A stretch of DNA of 32,000 nt from Thermodesulfobacteriota bacterium. Its GTDB lineage: Bacteria > Desulfobacterota > WTBG01 > JAGOGO01. The stretch covers positions 495,622 through 527,621 of the forward strand of contig CP113000.1 in assembly GCA_026625185.1 (NCBI GenBank). The letters are read 5' to 3'. Every line of letters starts with the position of its first letter. The first letter of the stretch is position 1. Below, piece after piece: positions 3,241 to 28,922 of the stretch. The position numbers and the translations under genes are program-made. Under the pieces are notes generated by a model. That model was not told where the DNA came from, did no database searches, and was given only the letters and a program-made list of their open reading frames with translations.

Positions 3241-3295
3241 ACTCGTACTGCCCTTGAAGCGAAGAGGAAAAGGCAGCCTGTTCGAAGAAGGGGAT

Positions 3296-3359
3296 GTCCA
3301 TAAAATCATAAAATTCTTAACAACTGGTCTTATACGGACCAATATAAACATTGTTAGCT
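3296..3359 (+). repeat. attC-like site, family-1 copy A
   Basis: TTAACAA (3317-3323) is complementary to TTGTTAG (3351-3357). Inner hairpin tggtc-ttatac-gacca. Core GTTAGCT at 3353-3359. Conserved left extension gtccataaaatcataaaatt. The EVE-nuclease gene starts 26 nt later. Confidence 0.55.
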
Positions 3360-3384
3360 ATCCTGATTTTTTGTAGGAGGCAAT

Positions 3385-4398
3385 ATGAATACAAACCGTA
3401 AATCACCCTTCTTACTTAATGGGGTGGTGGCAAATTGGGTCATAGGGAAGACGAAGGGAATCTGGGGGCTCCCGCTAAAGGGACTGACATGGGACTGTGC
3501 GATAGCCCACCTACAAGAACTTGGATTCATCGCAGGTTCCGAAGTCTTGGCCATTTCAGGCCCCAAGGCTCATTTTAGGGCTGTCATCGGGAGCGCCCGT
3601 GGTGTTTATTTTGACACGAGTCCACTATGGCCATTCGGTCGGGGTAGAGAAATCTATCCTGTCAGGATTGAACTGACCAATATCCAGGATATAAATCAGG
3701 ATTGGTTCAACGGGCCCAAAGGTGACTTATGGCGCGTACCATTACAGGACGTATATTTTTCAAAGAGAAGTCTCTATGTCCTCCCTCCTCAGAGTTTTAA
3801 ATACCCTCATGTCAACCAAACCACCGTTTTTGGCACTGCACCCCACAGTTCGGGCGTCCCTCCTACATCTGTTTCGGACTTCATTTCCCTTGAAGATGGC
3901 ACTGCACAGGCATTTTCCCAATTCGGCTTTAAGATTGAACAATTGGGCCACAAACGGCCTTTGGAACGCGTTCCCGATGGCATTGGTATGTTACAACGAT
4001 CCCTTGCCAATTACGCAAAGACCTTGAACGCTAGTCCCTATTTTGTTGTCTGGGACTGTAAATATGACTGTGGCCCCAACGGCCTGAAAGCAGCAGACGA
4101 ACGAGCCATCAAAGAGTACATTGAAACCTACGCTCCAACAAGAAAGGCTGAGGCTGACGCTGGCGTGTTTTGGTTTCTGATTGTCGCCCGCGATAAAGCA
4201 GTTGCAGATAAGGTCTACTCCGGAGTTTCTCAATGGACATGGGTCGGTGAATGTCACCGGCTTGGGCTACGGGGTCTTCGAGTTATCTCTTTATCCACTT
4301 TATTGGGCCTAGTCAAGACCCGCCAATCAGTGGTTGACACAGATGATTTCTTGTTAAGTCTGCTGCCGCGCGAATTTGCCAAACCCTATCTTGGGTAG
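3385..4398 (+). CDS. EVE (PUA-like) domain fused to PD-(D/E)xK restriction-endonuclease-like domain
   Basis: SD aggagg at 3375-3380. The N-terminal ~110 aa fit the archaeal-type EVE pattern (NWVIGKTKGIWGLP ... GSEVLAISGP..FRAVIGSARGVYFD..PLWP ... YPVRIEL). The C-terminal half has 'VPDGIG ... FVVWDCKYD' (PD ... D-x-K). Confidence 0.6.
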   Translation: MNTNRKSPFLLNGVVANWVIGKTKGIWGLPLKGLTWDCAIAHLQELGFIAGSEVLAISGPKAHFRAVIGSARGVYFDTSPLWPFGRGREIYPVRIELTNIQDINQDWFNGPKGDLWRVPLQDVYFSKRSLYVLPPQSFKYPHVNQTTVFGTAPHSSGVPPTSVSDFISLEDGTAQAFSQFGFKIEQLGHKRPLERVPDGIGMLQRSLANYAKTLNASPYFVVWDCKYDCGPNGLKAADERAIKEYIETYAPTRKAEADAGVFWFLIVARDKAVADKVYSGVSQWTWVGECHRLGLRGLRVISLSTLLGLVKTRQSVVDTDDFLLSLLPREFAKPYLG

Positions 4399-4404
4399 GG
4401 CAAT

Positions 4405-4469
4405 AGCTAACGCTGCGGTTGCACAAGGACCGTTCGTGACCACGGGGTTTGTGAGCCGTTGCGTTAGGA
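4405..4469 (+). repeat. integron attC site
   Basis: AGCTAAC (4405-4411) ... GTTAGGA (4463-4469). CTAACGC pairs with GCGTTAG (7 bp). An inner stem CGGTT/CACAA vs TTGTG/AGCCG has one bulged G. Length 65 bp. It starts 7 nt after the stop of the upstream gene, and the next gene starts 25 nt after it. Confidence 0.7.
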
Positions 4470-4493
4470 ACTTTATTATAATGGAGGTATTTA

Positions 4494-5411
4494 ATGGCCA
4501 ATCTTTTTTGGAAGACCCCCAAAGGTGTCTCAGCATTGTTAGCTACTCCCTTTAAGTCTGAAGAAGAATTTGAAAAAATAATCTTCGAGTCATCTGAAGT
4601 CCTAGAAGATATTTTTCTTCTGAAACGTCAGGTTAGAGGAGGTGCAAAGCCAGGTATTCCTGATATTCTCGGTCTAGACAGTGATGGTAATATCTGCATA
4701 ATTGAGTTGAAGAATACAACAGTTGATGCTTCAATAATTCCACAAGTACTACAATATGCCTTCTGGGCGGAACGAAACCCAGATTCAATCAAAAGTCTTT
4801 GGCTGGAAAAAGAAGAAAGACCAGATGATCTTGAAATAAGCTGGGATAACCTCCAAGTTAGGATTATTATTATTGCCCCTTCCATTCTTCGGTCAACCCT
4901 TGGTCTTGTCAATAAGATCAACTACACCGTGGATCTCATTGAACTGAAAAGATGGGTTGAGGGTGATAGCCAGTTTATGCTGGTGAATAAACTTGAAGAA
5001 GTTGAAAAAGTGTCAAAAGCAAAACCAGTAAGTGGCCTTCAGCACTATGATGAGATGTTCTACAAAGGACACTATAACAGCAAGAGCGCAGAACACTTTA
5101 TAAGGTATATCAGGGAGGTGGAGAAACTTGTCCATAGCGAAAAGTGGCCACTCGAGACCAAATTTAATAAATCCTACTGCGGGTTCAAAGCAGGTTTTTT
5201 CAATGCCTTTGGCATTAAATGGATTGGGTCAAAGACCTTTGCATTCTTTTTTAAATTGCCAAACAAAGAAGCAGAACGAATTAAAAAGGGCATGACCAAG
5301 TACGAGACTCCATGGAAGGAGGCAGTTTATTACATTGATCCAACAAAGACTAAAGTTGTCGACTTCAAGCCATTGTTCGAGGCCGCATTCAAGAGACTTA
5401 CAGGAGATTAA
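4494..5411 (+). CDS. NucS/DUF91-like PD-(D/E)xK nuclease with unrelated C-terminal domain
   Basis: SD ggagg at 4483-4487. 'GIPDILGLDSDGNICIIELKNTTVDASIIPQVLQYAFW' matches D ... E-x-K ... Q..Y of NucS/RecB-like nuclease domains. The C-terminal ~130 aa (KFNKSYCGFKAGFFNAFGIKWIGSKTFAFFFKL) resemble DUF4268/DUF5655-type modules (tentative). Confidence 0.65.
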   Translation: MANLFWKTPKGVSALLATPFKSEEEFEKIIFESSEVLEDIFLLKRQVRGGAKPGIPDILGLDSDGNICIIELKNTTVDASIIPQVLQYAFWAERNPDSIKSLWLEKEERPDDLEISWDNLQVRIIIIAPSILRSTLGLVNKINYTVDLIELKRWVEGDSQFMLVNKLEEVEKVSKAKPVSGLQHYDEMFYKGHYNSKSAEHFIRYIREVEKLVHSEKWPLETKFNKSYCGFKAGFFNAFGIKWIGSKTFAFFFKLPNKEAERIKKGMTKYETPWKEAVYYIDPTKTKVVDFKPLFEAAFKRLTGD

Positions 5412-5412
5412 T

Positions 5413-5560
5413 GCCTGTAATAAATGGCTCTATCGGACGGCATACTGCCGCCGCTGATTTCAATCATTATAGCTGAAAAATGAATTATTCACATTTTCAA
5501 CATCGACATAATTTCGCATTATGGTGTGCTGCCCGTGCTGTGCAACGCACGGTGAGCTTG
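5413..5560 (+). repeat. possible long, degenerate attC site
   Basis: Canonical core GTTAGGC at 5554-5560, 61 nt before the next start codon. The left end has only a degenerate inverse core (GCCTGTAAT, 5413-5421) and arm complementarity is weak. There is an internal hairpin ccgtgc/gcacgg (5533-5551). Confidence 0.25.
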
Positions 5561-5621
5561 GTCGTTAGGCCCCTAATATGTTTTTTTGTGGAAACATTTT
5601 ATTAATAAAAGGAGGCTTTAC

Positions 5622-6716
5622 ATGCCGCTAGAAATCGGTATCTGGCGAATTGATAGTGGCCTGAAACAAGTGGACTTTGGGCCGCTGGATATTGAGTCGC
5701 GCTTGGAAGATATCCTAGACAACAATATTGGCATTGCTTCACCGAACTGGCATGTTATAGGGCGACAGGTACGCACTGATCATGGTTTTTTTATCGACTT
5801 GCTCGCAATCGACCGAGACGCTAACCTCGTCGTGATTGAGCTCAAACGTGATAGGACCCACCGCGATATAGTAGCCCAAGTGCTCGACTATGGTTCGTGG
5901 GTTCGGGATCTCAAGGATGACCGGATAGCTCAGATCTTCGATGAATACCAGAAACGATGGCATCCGGACAGAATTATGATTTCCATTGATGAGTCGTTCA
6001 AAAAGAAGTTCGGTATCGCAATGCCAGATGAAATGAATTCCTCTCATGAACTTGTGGTGGTAGCATCGAGTTTGGATCCGAGCACGGAGCGTGTAGTTCG
6101 CTACTTAGCTGACGAATATGATGTTCGTATCAATGCAGTTTTCTTCCGAGTGTTCCGTGATGGCGACCGCGAGTACTTGAGCAGGGCATGGTTCCGTGAT
6201 CCTGCTGAAGTGAGTGCAGGCATGGACGAAGAGACCGTCGCCGGTGAGTGGAACGAGGAGTACTATGTATCCTTCGGTTACGACACGGAAGTTGTGCGCG
6301 ATGGACTTAATAGGGGCTATCTCGTCGCTGGAGGCGGTTCGTGGTACTCGAAGACGCTTGCGATGCTCGAGCTCGGCGCACGCATTTGGGTGAATGTGCC
6401 CGGGTTAGGCTATGTCGGAGTTGGTAAGGTCACGCAAGAGATGCAGCCGGTCGACGAGTTTACCGTGACCGATCAGGCCGGCAAACAGGTGTCGATCATT
6501 GAAGTATCACCGGCAGCAGCATCGCTTAGGCGAGCGAAGGATGATCCTGAAAAGGCAGATTACTTGGTACGGGTCGAATGGCTGAAAACTGTCGACCCAA
6601 ACCAGGCCATCCACGAGAAAGGATTCTTCGGGAACCAGAACTCCGTTGCCCGGCCTCGTTCGCCAAAATGGAACCATACAGTAGAGCGTCTCAAAATACG
6701 ATTTGGGGTCGAGTAG
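5622..6716 (+). CDS. NucS/DUF91-like PD-(D/E)xK nuclease with C-terminal beta-rich (reader-like?) domain
   Basis: I prefer the ATG at 5622 (SD aaaggagg at 5608-5615) over the listed 5586 start. 'FIDLLAIDRDANLVVIELKRDRTHRDIVAQVLDYGSWV' is the same nuclease signature as in 4494-5411. The C-terminal 170 aa (GGGSWYSKTL..GARIWVNVPGLGYVGVGKV ... YLVRVEWLKTV) are of unknown function. The gene is visibly GC-richer than its neighbours. Confidence 0.65.
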   Translation: MPLEIGIWRIDSGLKQVDFGPLDIESRLEDILDNNIGIASPNWHVIGRQVRTDHGFFIDLLAIDRDANLVVIELKRDRTHRDIVAQVLDYGSWVRDLKDDRIAQIFDEYQKRWHPDRIMISIDESFKKKFGIAMPDEMNSSHELVVVASSLDPSTERVVRYLADEYDVRINAVFFRVFRDGDREYLSRAWFRDPAEVSAGMDEETVAGEWNEEYYVSFGYDTEVVRDGLNRGYLVAGGGSWYSKTLAMLELGARIWVNVPGLGYVGVGKVTQEMQPVDEFTVTDQAGKQVSIIEVSPAAASLRRAKDDPEKADYLVRVEWLKTVDPNQAIHEKGFFGNQNSVARPRSPKWNHTVERLKIRFGVE

Positions 6717-6737
6717 AGGAGGGGGTGAGAGATAGAA

Positions 6738-6791
6738 GTCCATAATCTTAACAACTGAGCCTTACGCGGATCAATATAAACATTGTTAATA
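6738..6791 (+). repeat. attC-like site, family-1 copy B
   Basis: gtccataat-CTTAACAAC (6747-6755), hairpin tgagcc-ttacgc-ggatca, then atataaacattGTTAATA (core 6785-6791). It matches copy A with a deletion in the left extension. Confidence 0.55.
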
Positions 6792-6804
6792 TCTTAAAAA
6801 CGAC

Positions 6805-7062
6805 ATGGTAAAAATCACACGATTTCCTGGTTGTAAAGAAAGACGGCGGCGCCTGAATCTGGCCGAAGGTCGCGTATCGTGCCAAGTGTCCTCTCGCTGG
6901 TTGCAGTTCCCTGAGAATGCCACCGCCCTTTCTGACGGCACATATCTGGTTGTTAACGTCATGACGCTCACGCCAGAGGAGAAAGAAAGAAAAATATGCG
7001 AGCTGGTACTTCTCAAGGAAGATCTGCTTGCCATACTTGAGAAATTGCCTACAAAAGAATGA
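6805..7062 (+). CDS. hypothetical small protein (weak call)
   Basis: 85-aa ORF. Only the C-terminal third (MTLTPEEKERKICELVLLKEDLLAILEKLPTKE) looks protein-like, so the true start may be the internal ATG. No recognisable domain. Confidence 0.3.
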   Translation: MVKITRFPGCKERRRRLNLAEGRVSCQVSSRWLQFPENATALSDGTYLVVNVMTLTPEEKERKICELVLLKEDLLAILEKLPTKE

Positions 7063-7090
7063 ACATATCTTGCATTCGCAATTTTGAATT

Positions 7091-7462
7091 ATGGACATCA
7101 CGGTAAAACATCTTGAGGAAGCATGTTTTGATCTCGCGCGCTCAACAAAAGGGGAGATGCGCCCCGTTGATATATCCGAGATAACAGACCTATCGAAAAA
7201 ATTTCTTGCAGTCGCGCTTCAGGAAGAAGAGATCGGCAGAGAACTCGGCGTAACAATCCCTTTACTAACAAGGGCGGTACATTATTTGCGGGAAGCACAT
7301 GCAATACCGCCAATGGGGGGAGACATAGTCTGGTTTAAGAATATGCTTACGGCTGTCCTTGAGATTGCCTGTCCCAATGCTGGCCTTGACGGTCAAGGAA
7401 AGGCCTTCTTGCGCGATCTCCTCAAGGGGATTGGCTCTTTTTTGGATGACAATGAAACCTAA
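7091..7462 (+). CDS. hypothetical protein
   Basis: 123-aa ORF with an unbiased helical-looking sequence, in the same cassette as 6805-7062. The stop codon lies inside an ACCTAAC inverse-core-like heptamer (7457-7463). Confidence 0.5.
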   Translation: MDITVKHLEEACFDLARSTKGEMRPVDISEITDLSKKFLAVALQEEEIGRELGVTIPLLTRAVHYLREAHAIPPMGGDIVWFKNMLTAVLEIACPNAGLDGQGKAFLRDLLKGIGSFLDDNET

Positions 7463-7471
7463 CAAGGGAAG

Positions 7472-7567
7472 GTCCCTAAAATTATAAAATTCTTAACAAC
7501 GGGGTTTTATGCCGACTAAAATCAATTATATGGGTGTTATATAGAAACCATATAAGCATTGTTAGGT
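7472..7567 (+). repeat. attC-like site, family-1 copy C
   Basis: gtccctaaaattataaaattCTTAACAAC (7492-7500), a ~50-nt variable hairpin (ggggttt ... aaacc), then atataagcattGTTAGGT. The core at 7561-7567 fits GTTRRRY exactly. Confidence 0.55.
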
Positions 7568-7585
7568 AGCTGAGAGAGCAGAGCA

Positions 7586-8068
7586 ATGGTCCTTTTTCTC
7601 AAAAACCTCTTATTCACGTTGGTCGTTCCGGGCACAGTCGGAGTCTTTCTCCCCCTAAAGATAGCCGGGGGTCATTCTTCCGCGTCAGGATTGGCCTTCG
7701 CGACCGCCTGCGCTTTTTTCGCTATAGCCACATCGATTTATTTGTGGTGCGTGTGGAATTTCGCTGTGTTTGGGCGTGGCACACCAGCGCCAATTGATCC
7801 TCCCAAGAAACTCATCATGCGCGGGCTCTATCGGTACACCCGAAATCCGATGTATTTGGGAGTCCTCACAGCGATCTTGGGTTGGGCAATCCTTTTTAGA
7901 GCTACGACCTTGGTCTTCTATGCCATGGTGGTGGGAGCTTGCTGCCATCTGTTCATTGTCTTCTATGAGGAGCCCCATCTTCAACGTACATTCGGGAAGG
8001 AGTACGACGATTACCGCGCTCAGGTGAACCGGTGGCTTCCAAAACCCTGGCACAAGTTGGGAGCTTAA
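7586..8068 (+). CDS. isoprenylcysteine carboxyl methyltransferase (ICMT/PEMT)-family membrane methyltransferase
   Basis: 160 aa with 4-5 TM helices. 'GLYRYTRNPMYLGVL' is the family signature, and it is followed by 'EEPHLQRTFGKEYDDYRAQV'. Confidence 0.7.
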   Translation: MVLFLKNLLFTLVVPGTVGVFLPLKIAGGHSSASGLAFATACAFFAIATSIYLWCVWNFAVFGRGTPAPIDPPKKLIMRGLYRYTRNPMYLGVLTAILGWAILFRATTLVFYAMVVGACCHLFIVFYEEPHLQRTFGKEYDDYRAQVNRWLPKPWHKLGA

Positions 8069-8139
8069 AAATTATAAGGCCTCCCGTTGTCACGAGAAAA
8101 AACTTTGGTTGGAGTATACACTCAAAAAAATTGTTAGCA
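8062..8139 (+). repeat. attC-like site, family-1 variant (type 2 left arm)
   Basis: The right arm aaaaaaattGTTAGCA (core 8133-8139) matches family 1. The left arm cttaaaaattataaggcctccc is shared with 10725-10738. ataaggcctcc is complementary to ggagggcctcat at 8146-8157. Confidence 0.4.
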
Positions 8140-8188
8140 CGTTGTGGAGGGCCTCATATGGTGTGTAAATTCGATTTTTCGGCATCCC
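8124..8188 (+). repeat. 65-bp repeat, copy 1 (shared upstream element of two protease cassettes)
   Basis: Aligns with 9017-9082. There is a 22-nt perfect block aaattcgatttttcggcatccc (8167-8188 = 9061-9082) plus the shared blocks ggagggc and tcatat. Confidence 0.7.
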
Positions 8189-8268
8189 CCAGGGGGGTTA
8201 AATTCTATAATTCCATTAATTCTATTCAGCCGCCCGTTAAATTTGTGGCTGATATTTTAGGAGGGTAA
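8158..8268 (+). CDS. possible 36-aa upstream ORF (MVCKFDFSASPRGVKFYNSINSIQPPVKFVADILGG)
   Basis: The ATG is preceded by ggaggg with a 6-nt spacer. Its stop (8266-8268) lies inside the SD of the downstream protease gene. 'KFDFSAS' is also encoded in the second repeat copy, but without a start codon. Confidence 0.3.
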   Translation: MVCKFDFSASPRGVKFYNSINSIQPPVKFVADILGG

Positions 8269-8273
8269 CAACC

Positions 8274-8894
8274 ATGACTCTTATCATTGCAGCTATTTGT
8301 AGGGATGGGGTACTAATCAGATCCGATAAAAGAAGAAAAGTCATGAACTCATCAGGGGAGATTATATACTATGACGATATGGACAAAGTTTTCGTCTCTG
8401 CAGATAAAAGAACTATTATCTACAATCACGGAATCAACGTAATCAAAGGCAAGTCGTGGTATGACCTTGCTATCAGAGCAGAAAATGCAATAAGGAAAGA
8501 AAGTGCTGATGATATCGATACAGCACTTAACAAAGTCGAAAACACCATATCGGCTGAAGTGCTTGCCGAAATATCAAATAATCAACTCGACGATTTCTGT
8601 GCATTTGTAGTGATTCTCAAGACGAGCGGAAACCAGTGGCAGGCAAAGGATATTTCTTGGAAACGTGGAGAAGGCGTCAAAAAGACTCCCCTCGGAAGGA
8701 TCATTTTATCAGGCTCAGGTGAAAAATACATCAAACGGGACAAAAAATGGTGGAATAACAATTACTGGGCATCCCTTAGTATGGACGAAGCCAAAGGGCA
8801 GATTGAAAGGCTTTACTCGATGGCTATCAAAAATCAAAACAACGCTCAAGGAGACGAATTCTCATCGTCATTTAATGATGTGATGGTAACTTGA
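8274..8894 (+). CDS. stand-alone proteasome-beta/HslV-like Ntn (Thr) hydrolase
   Basis: Strong SD aggaggg. 'M-TLIIAAICRDGVLIRSDKR' puts Thr at position 1 after Met removal and Asp at 17. 'DKVF' supplies the Lys (about position 37), and 'ILSGSGEKY' matches the GSG motif of proteasome beta subunits. No alpha-subunit or ATPase partner is adjacent. Confidence 0.6.
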   Translation: MTLIIAAICRDGVLIRSDKRRKVMNSSGEIIYYDDMDKVFVSADKRTIIYNHGINVIKGKSWYDLAIRAENAIRKESADDIDTALNKVENTISAEVLAEISNNQLDDFCAFVVILKTSGNQWQAKDISWKRGEGVKKTPLGRIILSGSGEKYIKRDKKWWNNNYWASLSMDEAKGQIERLYSMAIKNQNNAQGDEFSSSFNDVMVT

Positions 8895-9016
8895 CCCAAC
8901 AAAATGATTGGGTTGACCTTGCCCTACTCGGTAATTGTCTTTTAGTGGTTGTGCAAGACGAAAGAAATAACCCCCTTGAAACAGAAGTTCGAGGATTACA
9001 CATTTAATACAAACCC

Positions 9017-9082
9017 AAAAAAAATTTTGGCGCATTGAGGAGGGCTCATATAGGCCCGGCAAATTCGATTTTTCGGCATCCC
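9017..9082 (+). repeat. 65-bp repeat, copy 2
   Basis: See 8124-8188. The ATG of the small ORF is ATA here and the reading frame is shifted. Confidence 0.7.
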
Positions 9083-9102
9083 GCCCTCTTTTTCGGCAAC
9101 AA

Positions 9103-9159
9103 CTAACAACCTGAAAGTCAGTCCAAGCGAAAAAAATAAAATTTTGATTGTTTTTTAGC
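9103..9159 (+). repeat. degenerate attC-like site (family-1-like)
   Basis: CTAACAAC (9103-9110), hairpin ctga-aag-tcag, then ttgattGTTttttAGC (9148-9159), which resembles cattGTTAGC with a T-run insertion. Confidence 0.3.
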
Positions 9160-9304
9160 CTTTTACGATTTAATATTTAAAAACATTTGGCCCTCGGATT
9201 ATTTGCGGAAACCTTATGCAAGGCTAATGAAATAAAACCATGGCGCTTCACTACTTGGGTTTTAGATCAGTATAAAAATTGCTGGGGGGTGTTGGAGACA
9301 ATAT

Positions 9305-10369
9305 ATGTCGAAACACAGGCGGTTGAAAAATTTTATACCTGCTCCAAAGCAGGTTGTATCTACCGTAGTGCCTAAGATTAACATGGTTGAGTCATTATAT
9401 GATTCGATCATTGAAGGCAATGAGTATGGAAGCATTGTTTCCGTAATTCCAAAGCCAGAGATTGATCTCATTGATGAAATTATTAAAGGCCTTAAAGCTG
9501 TACAATTCATTAGGTTACGACCTTGTTTGGCTTATATTGGGAATGTGATCCGATCTGATGACTATTCAGGCATTGTAACAGCGGATGATTTGCCATTTGC
9601 CGAAATGATAAAAGGAGTTCCCAAAGATACCGAAAGCGTAGATGTCTTTCTTGCAACGATGGGTGGCTCCGCTCATCAGGTAAGCAGATTTGTAAATTTC
9701 TTACGGGCACGATTTAAAGAAGTAGACTTCCTTGTCCCATCATTCTGTATGAGTGCTGGCACTCTATTTGCTCTTTCGGGTGATCATATTTGGATGAATC
9801 CTACTGCTTGCCTTGGTCCTATCGATCCACAAGTGCCCACAAAAGATGGAAGATTCGTCCCAGCACAGGCTTTGCTTCTTCTCATTAGCCAATTACAAGA
9901 ACAAGGCGATGAAGCTTTAAAGAACAAGGGGGCAGTGCCATGGACAGCTGTACGAATTATCGACAGCCTCGACAAGAAAGAATTGGGTGACGCAATTACT
10001 GCCTCGACCTATTCCATTACAATGGCAACCCAATTCCTTATTCAGTACAAATTCAAAAATTGGCAAACTAGGGAAACAAGCCAAATACCCGTCACGGATC
10101 AATATAGGCAAACTCGAGCTTTTGAAATCGCGTCAGCTCTAGCTGCACATGATCGATGGAAAAACCATGGACATTCCATCTCAAGAGATGTATTATGGAA
10201 TGAGATAAAGCTCCAGATTGACCACCCATCACCGGACTTGGAGAAGGCGATATCTAAGCTGTGGGCTCTATTTTTTTGGGTTTTTGACAAAACTCCAATT
10301 ATTAAACTAATAGTCTCGGAAAATTATCGTTTTGCTCGGCATTCCATCATTTTGGAGAAGAAACTATGA
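9305..10369 (+). CDS. SDH-family (serine dehydrogenase proteinase) ClpP/crotonase-fold serine protease
   Basis: 354 aa, SD ggaga. 'VDVFLATMGGSAHQVSRFVNFLRARFKEVDFLVPSFCMSAGTLFALSGDHIWMNPTACLGPIDPQV' matches the SDH/SppA-like core, including the nucleophile Ser in 'MSAGT'. Confidence 0.7.
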   Translation: MSKHRRLKNFIPAPKQVVSTVVPKINMVESLYDSIIEGNEYGSIVSVIPKPEIDLIDEIIKGLKAVQFIRLRPCLAYIGNVIRSDDYSGIVTADDLPFAEMIKGVPKDTESVDVFLATMGGSAHQVSRFVNFLRARFKEVDFLVPSFCMSAGTLFALSGDHIWMNPTACLGPIDPQVPTKDGRFVPAQALLLLISQLQEQGDEALKNKGAVPWTAVRIIDSLDKKELGDAITASTYSITMATQFLIQYKFKNWQTRETSQIPVTDQYRQTRAFEIASALAAHDRWKNHGHSISRDVLWNEIKLQIDHPSPDLEKAISKLWALFFWVFDKTPIIKLIVSENYRFARHSIILEKKL

Positions 10370-10605
10370 TTGAAAAAAATCTCCTAATGCAGCTCGGTTG
10401 GTCGGAAGACCTTATAGATGAAGTAACTAGGGTCTCCAACGAACTTTCGCGAAGCCAACCCTCGCTACCTCAAATCGGACAGACTCCATCGGCTCTTTAC
10501 TCCGACACTTGTGATTCACTTTTCTATAATAGCGACCAATCAAACACAACCGATCAGCTGATTTCGGCCCATAGAAGCCAGATCAAACCATCTCACGGTG
10601 CATAA
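10366..10605 (+). CDS. hypothetical 79-aa protein, translationally coupled to the SDH protease
   Basis: The ATGA overlap with the upstream stop (10366-10369) indicates coupling. The sequence is Ser/Gln/Thr-rich and probably disordered after an N-terminal helix. No recognisable domain. Confidence 0.45.
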   Translation: MIEKNLLMQLGWSEDLIDEVTRVSNELSRSQPSLPQIGQTPSALYSDTCDSLFYNSDQSNTTDQLISAHRSQIKPSHGA

Positions 10606-10724
10606 TGGGCGATCAGCTGGGAAGATAATTTGTTTTCTCATAACGCGTGACCGCGATTCATACCAGCAGGATTTCTATAGACACTGCGTAGAATTTCACA
10701 TACTATCAAAGAGAAGCCAAACAC

Positions 10725-10782
10725 TTATAAGGCCTCCCATTTTCAGGAGAAAAGAATTCTCCTAAAAGCAAAAGGAGGGAGG
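10725..10782 (+). repeat. type-2 repeat / attC-like remnant
   Basis: ttataaggcctccc(a)tt(t)tca(g)gagaaaa matches 8072-8100. Perfect inner hairpin aggagaa-aagaa-ttctcct. cctccc is complementary to gggagg (10776-10782). Confidence 0.35.
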
Positions 10783-11131: not shown

Positions 11132-11405
11132 ATAAATTTCCAACCTGTGTAAAATTGGTCTAGTCAAACTCAAACGAAAAGTGTGCCTGGGGTCTTAGGG
11201 GGGTCTACACCCTTGTAGAAACTAGTCCCTTGAAGAAGAGTAGTGCCGGTGAGAATAGAGCCCTTTGTTGAGGTAATGGTATGAGTACTGGCCTGACTAC
11301 TTTTCAGTTTGTTACACAAAAAAAGTGGGGACAATGTGGGGACAAAATTGGTTGGGAAACAAAAAAGGACTTGGCTGTATCTAGCTAAGTCCTTAATTTT
11401 GTTAA

Positions 11406-11479
11406 CGCGCCCAGGGTGACTCGAACACCCAACCTACGGATTCGTAGTCCGGTACTCTATCCAATTGAGCTATGGGCGC
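11406..11479 (-). tRNA. tRNA-Arg (anticodon ACG)
   Basis: The reverse complement folds as a cloverleaf: acceptor GCGCCCA/TGGGCGC, D-loop AATTGGATA, anticodon loop CT-ACG-AA, T-arm GGGTG-TTCGAGT-CACCC, discriminator G. CCA is not encoded. There is one C/T mismatch at the top of the anticodon stem. Confidence 0.93.
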
Positions 11480-11545
11480 AAAAAAATTAATTTATAATAA
11501 CATTTTTTACCCTTTTCGTCAATATCTTATTCAAAGATATTTTCC

Positions 11546-25902: not shown

Positions 25903-26110
25903 AATCTGAAATTTTAACAGGGGTGTTATGCCGATCCGTATAACACACCTACAAAAACGGTGGGTATTTTAAATAAACTGTAATAATCAACCATTATGGC
26001 TCAATTTTAAGATGCTTTTTAGGTGTCTTATATGGATTGGGTAACCAATTTGGGGACTTATATTTATCCGTATAATCACTGTTAAGTTCCATCAAATTCA
26101 ATCGTTATAG
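25903..26110 (+). repeat. family-1 repeat copy E (long, ~208 bp)
   Basis: The left arm aatctgaaatTTTAACAGgggtgttatgccgat matches copy C closely (cTTAACAACggggttttatgccgac). The right arm ccatcaaattcaatcGTTATAG (26104-26110) resembles copy D (ccaatataactatcGTTATGC). It contains the direct repeat ATCCGTATAAYCAC at 25934 and 26066. Confidence 0.45.
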
Positions 26111-26118
26111 GAGGGCGT

Positions 26119-26970
26119 ATGACTATCTATGAACAGTTGTTAGATTACTGTGAGGCACAGAAACGAATATATGGAAAGGTGACCTTCACATCAGGTGAAT
26201 TGAAAGACGCTCTTCTCGAAAGCCATGGCACTCCCAGAACCAGCACCCTTCCACCAGACTATTGTTACAACATTATGAACGATGGTATTCATTTCAAGCA
26301 TCATCTATTTGAACAAATTGGAGAAACCTACAAGTTCTTGGGTCCAGGCTATCTGTATTCCGGGGTCATTACCTGGAAAGGTACCCCAGTGGGTGCTTGG
26401 CAAGAAGGCAGCTTCTTCTTATGGAAATTGTTTCGGAAGGTAAATCGCAGGTATTACAGGCCCGAGTTGAGGCCAACAGAAACGAGCGAGGCAAGTCCAG
26501 GTACTCTTCAAGAGGTGATTGAGCGTGGTAATATTTCTCCTGGCTCTTTGCATACGGTTGATAGCCCGGCTCCAGAAGAAAACCTTTTGCTTCCCTTTAT
26601 TGATGTTCGGGAGGTCCAGAGAAAGGACGCAACAGTTTCAAGAATCATAAGAGACACCAAGCAAACAAAATTGATTAAGCAACTCTACAAACATTGCTGC
26701 CAGGTTTGCGGAATCGCATTGCAGACATCTGCCGGTCCCTATGCTGAAGCTGCTCATATCGTTCCCCTTGGCCAACCGCATAATGGATCAGACACAGTCG
26801 ACAATATTCTATGCCTTTGCCCAAACCACCATGTTCTATTCGACTATGGCGCATTCTCAGTCAGCGATTCTCTTATCCTATTGGGAATGCCCGGAAAATT
26901 ATCCGTGCATCCACAACATATAATCAGCAAGAAGTACCTTGCGCATCACAGAAATCGAAACATTAAATAA
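26119..26970 (+). CDS. HNH_2-type endonuclease with uncharacterised N-terminal domain
   Basis: SD aggaggg. The C-terminus 'CCQVCGIAL ... YAEAAHIVPL ... DTVDNILCLCPNHHVLFDYGAF' is the HNH_2 motif seen in type IV (modification-dependent) restriction enzymes. The N-terminal ~180 aa (PPDYCYNIMNDGIHF ... FEQIGETYKFLG) are unassigned. Confidence 0.8.
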   Translation: MTIYEQLLDYCEAQKRIYGKVTFTSGELKDALLESHGTPRTSTLPPDYCYNIMNDGIHFKHHLFEQIGETYKFLGPGYLYSGVITWKGTPVGAWQEGSFFLWKLFRKVNRRYYRPELRPTETSEASPGTLQEVIERGNISPGSLHTVDSPAPEENLLLPFIDVREVQRKDATVSRIIRDTKQTKLIKQLYKHCCQVCGIALQTSAGPYAEAAHIVPLGQPHNGSDTVDNILCLCPNHHVLFDYGAFSVSDSLILLGMPGKLSVHPQHIISKKYLAHHRNRNIK

Positions 26971-26979
26971 ACACTTGGC

Positions 26980-27037
26980 ACCTAACCAAAGGATTCACCG
27001 GTTGGCTTAAAGCCGCCGGTGATCCTTGCAGTTGGGC
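26980..27037 (+). repeat. integron attC site (canonical, 58 bp)
   Basis: ACCTAAC (fits RYYYAAC, 26980-26986) ... GTTGGGC (fits GTTRRRY, 27031-27037). AAGGATTCACCGG pairs with CCGGTGATCCTT with one extrahelical T. Apical stem ggctt/aagcc. Confidence 0.85.
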
Positions 27038-27062
27038 AGTAATTTAAAGCGAATTAATTTAT

Positions 27063-27908
27063 ATGGGTCATCATTATCTACCACAATATTATTTAAAAGG
27101 ATTTACAGAAACGCCCGATAATATGTTATGGGCTTATGAAAAAGGTACTGGAAATAAATTTAATACTCAAATCAAAAGCTTAGCCAATATTACAGATTTT
27201 TATTCGGAGGAAACCGAACAATATTTAGCAAATGACATTGAAGGTCCAGCAAATGAGGTTCTTGATAAAATTCGTAGTCGGCATTTAATCAGTGAAGAAG
27301 ATAAAAATACTTTTGCAGAGTATATGGCAGTAATGTGGAAACGTGTACCTCGTGCGAAAGAATATTTAAAAAACATGGCACCTCGCCTTGCCGATGAAAT
27401 AGGAAAAAAATTGAGCACTGATTTGAGTTATATAGTTGAGCAAGCGCCGGAAAAAACGGAGTTTATAGAAAAGCGACAAAAGGAAATCGACGATATTTTA
27501 GCAATTTATGCCACAGATCCCCCTAAAGATATTTGGCTGGGAAATATTCCTCCAGAACGAACACCAAGAATTGTTGAGGCAATGAAGGCAATGACTTGGA
27601 CATTCTGGGAATTTGATCAATATCCAGCATTTTTAACATGCGATAATCCGGTTTTCTATTTCACGTGGATGGGTGTTGGAAAAAAAGAATCAGAGATTTC
27701 CTTTCCAATTTCAAGTCATATTGTTTTATGGGCGACATGGAGAGCAGATTTGCCTCGTAATTTCATAACGGCTTCTTCCCAAATTGTAAAGGAAATGAAC
27801 AGAAGAATTGTTCACAATGCGAACAGGTTTGCTTTTCATTGCAGAGATGAGCATTGGATAGTTCCTTTTATAAAAAAGGAAATTTGGAAGCTGAATCGAA
27901 TTGCGTAA
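27063..27908 (+). CDS. DUF4238 domain protein
   Basis: The N-terminal 'HHYLPQYYLKGF' is the DUF4238 signature. 281 aa, a single-gene cassette between two canonical attC sites. Confidence 0.8.
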   Translation: MGHHYLPQYYLKGFTETPDNMLWAYEKGTGNKFNTQIKSLANITDFYSEETEQYLANDIEGPANEVLDKIRSRHLISEEDKNTFAEYMAVMWKRVPRAKEYLKNMAPRLADEIGKKLSTDLSYIVEQAPEKTEFIEKRQKEIDDILAIYATDPPKDIWLGNIPPERTPRIVEAMKAMTWTFWEFDQYPAFLTCDNPVFYFTWMGVGKKESEISFPISSHIVLWATWRADLPRNFITASSQIVKEMNRRIVHNANRFAFHCRDEHWIVPFIKKEIWKLNRIA

Positions 27909-27925
27909 TTTTGAATTTAATGTTT

Positions 27926-27992
27926 GCCCAACCAGGCGTTTCACCGACCCACTAGGGCTTCGGCGAGTGGGCCGGTGAACTAATCGTTCGGT
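27926..27992 (+). repeat. integron attC site (67 bp)
   Basis: GCCCAAC (27926-27932), unpaired spacer CAGGCG / CTAATC, and a 14-of-15-bp stem TTCACCGACCCACT / AGTGGGCCGGTGAA. The core GTTCGGT (27986-27992) has one deviation from GTTRRRY. Confidence 0.8.
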
Positions 27993-28003
27993 GAATAATT
28001 ATA

Positions 28004-28699
28004 GTGTCCTTTAAAATGAATGCATATGCTTTAAATCTCGCAGTTCTTGAAGGTCATGGAAATGTAGAAAAAAATGCTTTTGAACTAAGCTATGGTTTAT
28101 TTCATGGTACAGCTTTTGGTATCGCTCTTGATTTGTTTCTGACTGCTGCCCACGTTTTCAAAGATGCTCAGGGAGATGGCGAAGTAGCCTTGGCTCGGCT
28201 TACACCCGGCCACTTCCATGCTCAGACGGTAAGGGATTTTGAAATTTTTGATGATATTGACCTCGCTCTTCTGAATTGTAATAACCTGTCTGCAGAGATA
28301 TTGCCATTTAACTTTACACCCCTCAATTTTCTTGTTGATGTTTTCACTATGGGTTATCCCTTTGGATTCGAACCTCCAGTTTACCACCTTAGGGCCTTCA
28401 AAGGGCATATTGTTACCCGTCGAGGCTTGACAAGCTTGCCGGGAGTTCCTCTTGGATATGAACTATCGTTTGTGCCACCACCGGGATTATCGGGTGCCCC
28501 GCTTCTGACACTCTTGCCTGACGGTTCTCCAGTGATAGCAGGAATGGTACTTCAGCATCATATTGCAGAGTACCGCAAACGCCGAATGGAATTAGGGATA
28601 GCTCTCGATATAGGAGAAATACTCACTTTGGAAAGCCGAATTGTTGGGGGTAATATAGCTGAACGACTTTTTAATCGAAAACGTCTTGTTCGCAAATGA
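28004..28699 (+). CDS. cytoplasmic trypsin-like (S1/Trypsin_2) serine protease
   Basis: Catalytic triad motifs in the correct order: 'FLTAAHVF' (His), 'DIDLALL' (Asp), 'PPPGLSGAPLL' (Ser). No signal peptide. The start is either GTG 28004 or ATG 28016. Confidence 0.7.
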   Translation: MSFKMNAYALNLAVLEGHGNVEKNAFELSYGLFHGTAFGIALDLFLTAAHVFKDAQGDGEVALARLTPGHFHAQTVRDFEIFDDIDLALLNCNNLSAEILPFNFTPLNFLVDVFTMGYPFGFEPPVYHLRAFKGHIVTRRGLTSLPGVPLGYELSFVPPPGLSGAPLLTLLPDGSPVIAGMVLQHHIAEYRKRRMELGIALDIGEILTLESRIVGGNIAERLFNRKRLVRK

Positions 28700-28737
28700 A
28701 AGCAATAAAGACAGACATTGAGAACACCGAACAAACT

Positions 28738-28788
28738 CATTAACTCGGACTGGCAATTTCGCTGCGCTCCATTGTCATCCGGTTATGC
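28738..28788 (+). repeat. integron attC site (short, 51 bp)
   Basis: CATTAAC ... GTTATGC (TAAC/GTTA paired). cggaCtggcaat pairs with attgtcatccg with one bulged C and one mismatch. 13-nt loop. Confidence 0.65.
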
Positions 28789-28814
28789 GGAGCTTTATAT
28801 TAAAAAAAGGGAAT

Positions 28815-28922
28815 GTCCCTAAAATCATAAAATTCTTAACAACGGCTCCTTATGCTGAATTTTTTTATAAATTAGATAATACATTTTGGTTTTTATAGGG
28901 ACCAATATAACTATCGTTATGC
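28815..28922 (+). repeat. attC-like site, family-1 copy D
   Basis: gtccctaaaatcataaaattCTTAACAAC (28835-28843), a ~60-nt AT-rich variable region, then gggaccaatataactatcGTTATGC (28916-28922). It begins 26 nt after the preceding attC. Confidence 0.55.

Follow-up and report, generated by a model that had tools for sequence, protein, structure and literature searches.

Three genes encoding proteases of unrelated folds lie within 32,000 nucleotides of the chromosome of a Thermodesulfobacteriota bacterium (contig CP113000.1, positions 495,622 to 527,621; this whole stretch is hereafter called the window, with coordinates counted from its first nucleotide), which raises the question of whether they serve a common purpose. 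The genes encode a proteasome-like threonine hydrolase of 206 amino acids (8274..8894), a ClpP-fold serine protease of the SDH type of 354 amino acids (9305..10369) and a chymotrypsin-fold, trypsin-like serine protease of 231 amino acids (28004..28699, with its start at 28016 in the public annotation), all on the plus strand. An initial annotation, made from the DNA letters, had described them as cytoplasmic, partnerless proteases carried within 20 kb of cassette DNA and convergently recruited to one shared, possibly undescribed role. Two locus tags of a 3.3-Mb contig from a Thermodesulfobacteriota metagenome-assembled genome, OS130_02420 and OS130_02520, gave exact matches to proteins of the window. 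The three open reading frames (ORFs) are real, each having many homologues: 27 for the Thr hydrolase (in a collection of 5.8 billion proteins), more than 487 for the SDH protease and 143 for the trypsin-like protease. The three fold assignments were also borne out, by AlphaFold2 (AF2) models compared in Foldseek, by Pfam scores and by conserved catalytic residues.

The relation between the genes was assessed by tblastn of the three proteins, and of a small protein encoded next to the SDH protease, against 26 non-viral loci of chromosomal or metagenomic origin, and by viral scans (IMG/VR) from which 80 loci were taken. In none of these loci did any two of the families occur together. The viral scans recovered the SDH family only, with neither the Thr hydrolase nor the trypsin-like family found in IMG/VR. 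Mobility differs as well, the trypsin-like gene being a live integron cassette, the Thr hydrolase gene apparently a decayed one and the SDH gene part of a two-gene module of prophages and islets. With distributions and mobility so different, the claim of a shared role reached by convergent recruitment was not supported, and a single window gives no statistical basis for convergence. The chances are somewhat better than even that the genes belong to three separate accessory units instead of a single system, each unit with the acquisition and function proposed below. Their presence in one window would then reflect the defence-rich pools of accessory genes that flank a block of core genes, not a functional link.

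The SDH protease does not stand alone. Its stop codon overlaps by 4 bp (ATGA) the start of a 79-amino acid ORF (10366..10605, plus strand), to which it is translationally coupled, and a small ORF of 68–83 amino acids follows the protease gene in seven of seven chromosomal homologue loci (among L006–L013), contrary to the claim that none of the proteases has a recognisable partner. The chromosomal small ORFs have the N-terminal motif MIxxxLLxxLGWSEDLIxEVTRV in common; the tail behind it varies and in the window protein is rich in Ser, Thr and Gln. Relatives of the SDH protease with 31–53% identity are present in 131 IMG/VR contigs, of which the 80 viral loci counted here are part. A tightly linked ORF of 53–92 amino acids lies just after the protease gene in about 72 of these 80 loci, and many of the viral partners share a helix followed by the motif G-hydrophobic-hydrophobic-x-x-P-x-[FY]-x-[LI].

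The 354-amino acid protein scored 46.8 bits against PF01972 (cut-off 31.3) and 57.6 bits against NCBIfam NF047768, below the cut-off of 250 of that model. In its AF2 model (predicted local distance difference test score, pLDDT, 87.4) the N-terminal half matched the 1510-N stomatin protease, ClpP and SppA in Foldseek, and the helical C-terminal half had no match in the PDB. None of the 32 close or 17 distant homologues compared, phage proteins among them, departs from S150 (in an MSAGT motif), D174 (in LGPIDPQ) or H288, and with these catalytic residues conserved the enzyme looks active. With the 1510-N/NfeD stomatin-specific protease, ClpP and SppA it shares a core of the ClpP fold, whose nucleophilic Ser belongs to an MSAG motif, and like 1510-N it is encoded in one operon with a dedicated partner protein. 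Unlike these enzymes, it carries a Ser-Asp-His set in which the His lies about 140 residues downstream, its helical C-terminal half is large, it lacks a membrane anchor, and its partner is merely 53–92 amino acids long.

In three different lambdoid or P22-like prophages of E. coli the SDH pair (the protease gene and its small partner gene) comes immediately after the gene for the LexA-family cI repressor, in the same orientation. It is located between cI and N in one of them (L110), and in another (L108) it occupies the corresponding place before the early-left genes ral, cIII, kil and gam; this slot is the one occupied by rexAB in lambda. Of 5,426 complete E. coli genomes, 20 carry the pair, and RefSeq names its products "SDH family Clp fold serine proteinase" and "hypothetical protein"; WP_021518647.1 and WP_167851737.1, found in strain E94 for example, are one such pair. 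A cI homologue was detected by tblastn just upstream of the pair in 19 of the 80 viral loci, and Pfam scanning of ten loci identified S24 or CI-type repressors upstream in five, four of them additional to the tblastn count. In a locus of Gram-positive type (L036) the pair comes after an endolysin gene, not after a repressor. Among the chromosomal loci, one (L006 1-5443) has a 67%-identical pair beside BREX genes (BrxA, E 3.5e-100; BrxB, E 7e-43) and a PDC-S15/FRG gene, and in two others (L010 and L012) the pair is on islets bearing an integrase. One of these islets is minimal: at L012 6740-9159 the pair is the sole cargo between the 3' end of a tRNA gene and a convergent gene for a 295-amino acid tyrosine recombinase.

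On these data the SDH pair is best read as a two-gene module that moves autonomously and belongs to the "moron" type of prophages. Its relatives would be morons expressed in the lysogen from a position right after cI, and on that account a function in phage exclusion or abortive infection, to which the context points, is most likely. The small protein may act as a regulator or as a dedicated substrate of the protease. With lambda RexAB and other exclusion modules of prophage immunity regions, such as BstA (PMC8585504), the prophage relatives share a two-gene organization and the same slot after cI in diverse temperate phages. They differ in being unrelated to RexA/RexB or BstA by sequence and fold, in having a protease as the putative effector and in the chromosomal location of the window copy. 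No match was obtained with PADLOC v2.0.0 for the 206-, 354- and 79-amino acid proteins or for ten prophage relatives and partners, and nothing relevant to the SDH pair was found in the literature within reach of searching. Within that literature the cassette association of the proteasome-like family and the recurrence of the trypsin-like family as a cassette, both described below, appear to be undescribed, and so, foremost, do the architecture of the SDH protease with its small partner and its placement in the slot between cI and N. Should the pair prove to be a defence module, a ClpP-fold protease system would be added to the anti-phage repertoire; the E. coli copies, which occupy the classic rexAB position, make this directly testable in that organism.

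The SDH pair lacks the marks of an integron cassette. A heuristic search revealed no attC-like hairpins flanking it in eight homologue loci, no conserved non-coding element was found in the flanks of the SDH loci, and the window offers only a non-consensus hairpin. The latter (10550..10620) is imperfect and forms around two CAGCTG-containing arms over the 3' end and stop codon of the 79-amino acid ORF; its layout is attC-like and its R' box is non-consensus on the gene strand. The view that all three proteases are cassette cargo is thus accurate for the trypsin-like gene, a true cassette, applies to the Thr hydrolase as an apparently decayed cassette with intact cassette homologues, and is not borne out for the SDH pair.

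The 206-amino acid protein is a proteasome-beta/HslV-like N-terminal-nucleophile (Ntn) Thr hydrolase without a propeptide, its sequence beginning with MT. Nothing useful was returned by sequence-only searches (Pfam, NCBIfam, PHROGs, PADLOC and phmmer against the PDB), and the fold was reached by structure and profile methods only. PF00227 was not matched by the window protein and was matched by one of 41 relatives (E 5e-4). An AF2 model built from the family alignment (pLDDT 92.9) has the four-layer alpha-beta-beta-alpha fold of beta subunits, and its best 50 Foldseek matches in the PDB comprised nothing but 20S beta subunits and HslV (E as low as 4e-8, TM-score 0.5–0.65). M1, D18, K38, H52 and G147 are invariant, and T2 nearly so, across the 41 relatives, whose identity goes down to 17%, and the family profile places T2, D18 and K38 on Thr1, Asp17 and Lys33 of beta2 subunits. 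The Foldseek matches and this alignment vindicate the designation as a proteasome-like Thr protease. Candidate catalytic residues are T2, D18 and K38, together with H52-G53 and S146-G147-S148-G149; judging by their conservation, the window enzyme looks active. Loss of Met1 would bare the Thr as nucleophile, and the protein, once self-assembled, would probably need no ATPase partner to act on its substrates, peptides or unfolded proteins. No ATPase ORF, such as hslU of the HslUV system, was found at 8069-9304, among the called genes of homologue loci L001–L003, on the P0015 contig or in the ORF lists of short contigs, and no partner gene is adjacent in the window or in the homologue loci.

Close homologues of the Thr hydrolase (56–79% identity) are integron cassettes. 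In L019 the gene lies between strongly folding attC sites at 94-172 and 800-885, the downstream one giving z values of -3.2 and -4.4 for its two strands upon refolding. An attC follows the stop codon immediately in L021 and precedes the start codon immediately in L026, and in L020 an R' box, GTTGGGT, is found 7 nt ahead of the ATG. Junctions are homologous between the window and these close homologues, with TGA-CCCAAC (the R'' box) past the stop codon and GGT(A/C)ACAA ahead of the ATG. At the 5' junction of the window gene (8260..8266, plus strand) the sequence GGAGGGT, 7–8 nt before the ATG, stands in place of the attC R' box GTTKGGT of the homologous cassettes. At its 3' side, a site at 8893..8954 (plus strand) retains an R'' box, ACCCAAC (8893-8899), homologous to the attC sites of L019 and L021, and a box GTTGTGC (8948-8954) in the R' position; this site no longer forms one hairpin (z -1.3). 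The mutated 5' R' box and the non-folding 3' attC therefore mark the window Thr hydrolase gene as an apparently decayed and probably immobile cassette. It would have arrived as a single-gene integron cassette, its recombination sites decaying afterwards.

More distant homologues (about 42% identity, from Planctomycetes-Verrucomicrobia-Chlamydiae (PVC)-group bacteria) are found outside cassettes, in unrelated contexts. Some of them (P0020, P0025, L022 1780-2487 and L024 991-1731) have N-terminal extensions resembling signal peptides that end in AxA just before the catalytic Thr, as in ...HSARA|TLIV. Because AxA directly precedes the Thr, the nucleophile of these homologues may be exposed by signal peptidase and not by autoprocessing or loss of Met. 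The three window proteins have neither N-terminal signal nor transmembrane segments, in line with the cytoplasmic location given by the initial annotation, although the location itself is a deduction from that feature.

Orphan proteasome homologues without partners are a described class comprising 22 families (Fuchs, Alva and Lupas 2021, PMC8665760). The window family resembles these proteins (HslV, BPH, Anbu and the 22 families) in its beta-subunit-like fold, in residues of the Thr1/Asp17/Lys33 type and in the lack of an adjacent AAA+ ATPase or an informative operon, and it lacks a propeptide as do the non-HslV homologues. It differs in being beyond the sequence reach of PF00227, in its extremely small size (69 clusters among 1.84 billion cluster representatives in a profile search) and in the integron-cassette nature of its close members, a context not reported in PMC8665760. 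The family may coincide with one of the 22 named ones, for example PHD. With its integron cassettes, the Thr hydrolase would give orphan proteasome homologues their first informative genomic setting, and thereby a handle on the function of this class of proteins.

In the window, and likewise in two other genomes, the trypsin-like gene by itself makes up a true integron cassette. The window copy is preceded directly by an attC at 27926..27992 and closed by another at 28738..28788 (both plus strand), with no room for a second ORF between them. A 75%-identical homologue (L018) has attC-like hairpins immediately on both sides, in an array that begins at an intI-type integrase gene and has five attC sites upstream of the homologue. 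Another homologue (L014) is likewise flanked by attC sites; its array has also received a group II intron, whose reverse transcriptase (RVT_1+GIIM) is encoded at L014 1939-3309. Elsewhere (L017 6001-8719), a 64%-identical homologue is located about 400 bp upstream of a gene for a 537-amino acid CHAT-domain protease, on a mobile element that also carries Rad52, RNase H and AEP-primase genes.

The 231-amino acid protein scored 33.6 bits against PF13365 (Trypsin_2; cut-off 27.6), and all 25 family members compared keep H50 (TAAHV), D86 (IDLAL) and S163 (GLSGAP). Among solved relatives, a sequence profile places a MarP-type protease nearest, at a weak E of 1.5e-4. Single-protein and protease-bearing defence systems include Lit, SAVED-CHAT and retron type XI with its trypsin-like domain. 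The window protein, too, has a trypsin-fold catalytic domain, and its PADLOC matches, at the domain level only, were to RT-Protease_XI (E about 3e-4). It is unlike them in having no sensor, reverse transcriptase, SAVED or NTPase domain, and the matches are too weak for membership. Integrons are documented stores of compact defence genes (10.1101/2024.07.02.601686, Darracq et al.; 10.64898/2026.03.17.712381, citing three 2025 papers), and the words protease, peptidase and trypsin are absent from the main text of both preprints. The trypsin-like gene, and the Thr hydrolase gene through its homologues, are like the cassettes described there in being short single-ORF units bounded by attC sites beside defence candidates; unlike them, they belong to arrays that flank a core-gene block in a window without an integrase. 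An active-looking protease that recurs in other integrons could serve as a defence effector. Of the claim that the locus contains minimal protease-only cassettes, the trypsin-like single-gene cassette is a valid case, whereas the SDH protease, having a partner, is not.

The gene pools to which the three genes belong are known for an abundance of anti-phage functions, which makes a defence role suggested by context plausible, most strongly for the SDH pair. That the three proteases, each as a protease-only cassette, were convergently recruited to one undescribed role, such as proteolytic abortive infection or the cleavage of phage proteins, is nevertheless rather improbable. Intact catalytic residues in all three proteins, their location among defence-candidate cassettes and the compact defence genes known from integron cassettes (10.1101/2024.07.02.601686) would agree with it; the lack of co-occurrence in 106 related loci, the partner of the SDH protease, the 13.5 kb of core genes that part the two variable regions and the inability of one window to establish convergence argue otherwise. 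Ordinary accessory physiology (peptide turnover, stress proteostasis or nutrient scavenging) riding on mobile DNA without any conflict with phages is also an unlikely explanation. It draws on the 22 orphan proteasome-homologue families without informative context (Fuchs et al., PMC8665760), on distant Thr hydrolase homologues beside glycoside hydrolases, some with signal peptides, and on SDH homologues in metabolic neighbourhoods (L008 and L009), but it sits uneasily with the repeated occurrence of the SDH pair in the immunity region of prophages, with the SDH homologue adjoining BREX and with the arrays in which the trypsin-like and Thr hydrolase genes accompany PDC-S11, PDC-S18, DUF4238 and HNH genes. 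Among explanations for single genes, the SDH protease and its small partner could regulate lysis and lysogeny, the protease attacking the neighbouring repressor as an ImmA-like anti-repressor, or form a toxin-antitoxin addiction module. Co-orientation with a cI-type repressor gene immediately upstream in many prophages fits such roles, as does the compact two-gene unit on small integrase-bearing islets (L012). The adjacent repressors, however, are LexA-family S24 proteins that cleave themselves, no repressor or prophage is near the copies of the window, L006, L008 and L009, and loci of Gram-positive type place the pair after endolysin (L036), all of which makes this a poor prospect. Finally, the 206-amino acid protein might be a connectase-like peptide ligase or transpeptidase, or another Ntn amidohydrolase, and not a protease. 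A sequence-specific ligase belongs to the proteasome-like family (PMC7980362, as cited in PMC8665760), TM-scores to beta subunits stand at just about 0.6 and no match to PF00227 clears the threshold; set against this, the T1/D17/K33 arrangement and a GSG-like motif are as in hydrolytic beta subunits, and the model secondary structure lacks a connectase-like helical insertion between strands 3 and 4, so that this alternative is very hard to credit.

The description of the window as three independent accessory units, with a moron-type module at its left side, has to accommodate several observations that weigh against it. The argument from the rexAB slot rests on relatives with 31–53% identity, since the SDH pair of the window lies outside any prophage, in a variable region of the chromosome. 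Homology between the phage-type and the window-type small partners is not demonstrable. Two of the six chromosomal SDH contexts (L008 and L009) are metabolic neighbourhoods without defence or mobile-element neighbours, and the distant contexts of the Thr hydrolase (L001, beside glycoside hydrolases) also lack such neighbours. In addition, attC calling was heuristic and noisy, missing true sites at strict settings and flagging coding DNA at lenient ones; for this reason, reliance was placed on strong hairpins and on junction homology. A more far-reaching proposal, in which the SDH pair is an undescribed and widespread anti-phage system for exclusion or abortive infection by regulated proteolysis, housed in the cI-N slot and in chromosomal islets, and the cassette-borne proteasome-like and trypsin-like enzymes are single-protein effectors of similar logic, is put forward only as a tentative possibility.

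The window as a whole, analyzed with Pfam, PADLOC and ARAGORN, consists of three blocks. A left variable region (1 to about 11400) contains a DUF2357+PDDEXK_7 gene (590-2950), the NucS/PD-(D/E)xK-like PADLOC candidates PDC-S18 (4494-5411, E 1.8e-134) and PDC-S11 (5586-6716, E 1.7e-129), a PEMT-like methyltransferase gene (7586-8068), and the Thr hydrolase, SDH and 79-amino acid ORFs. It ends at a tRNA-Arg(ACG) gene (11405..11480, minus strand), where the core block starts; this extends to about 25000 and includes DUF2784, recA, pilT-like, recX, alaS, bamD, amidohydrolase, glmU, glmS, mauE and rhodanese genes. The right-hand short genes (26119-28699) are an HNH/mREase-IV-like cassette (26119-26970), a DUF4238 cassette (27063-27908) and the Trypsin_2 gene. 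The nuclease-type defence candidates mentioned by the initial annotation are therefore present nearby, namely PDC-S18, PDC-S11, DUF2357+PDDEXK_7, HNH/mREase_IV-like and DUF4238. No direct repeat derived from the tRNA-Arg gene, the mark of an integrated island, was found when looked for.

Sites of the attC type (RYYYAAC ... GTTRRRY) with imperfect hairpins are found between short genes in both variable regions, examples being 3314-3360, 4405-4469, 6746-6792, 7491-7568, 26980-27037, 27926-27992 and 28738-28788, and the PDC-S18 and PDC-S11 genes are each one attC-bounded cassette. The cassettes form two clusters of equal orientation, 3285-7568 and 26057-28919, on either side of the roughly 13.5 kb of housekeeping genes (11405 to about 25000); the figure of 20 kb of cassette DNA was therefore mistaken. 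The locus thus has two attC clusters around a core block, and units of three mobility kinds, instead of a single long array. Pfam scanning of window ORFs revealed no integrase, for which reason the clusters look to be of the CALIN type (clusters of attC sites lacking integron-integrases). One attC subtype was observed in both clusters, with the common stretch AAGGGnAnGTCCnTAAAATnATAAAATTCTTAACAAC.

Two kinds of repeat surround the left protease genes. One, of about 75 nt, is present upstream of the Thr hydrolase gene (8118..8191) and upstream of the SDH gene (9014..9085), both on the plus strand and with the identical 22-mer AAATTCGATTTTTCGGCATCCC. It had no Rfam match, promoter or terminator consensus or stable fold, and was absent from the 18 loci compared. 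A single operon of the Thr hydrolase gene and the SDH pair, suggested by this shared upstream repeat, was considered and rejected, as the families never co-occur elsewhere. The other is a 44-nt direct repeat containing TTATAAGGCCTCCC, with 80% identity between its copies (8062..8105 and 10715..10758, plus strand). These copies bracket the block holding the Thr hydrolase and SDH units, and may be the left halves of two related, degenerate attC sites.

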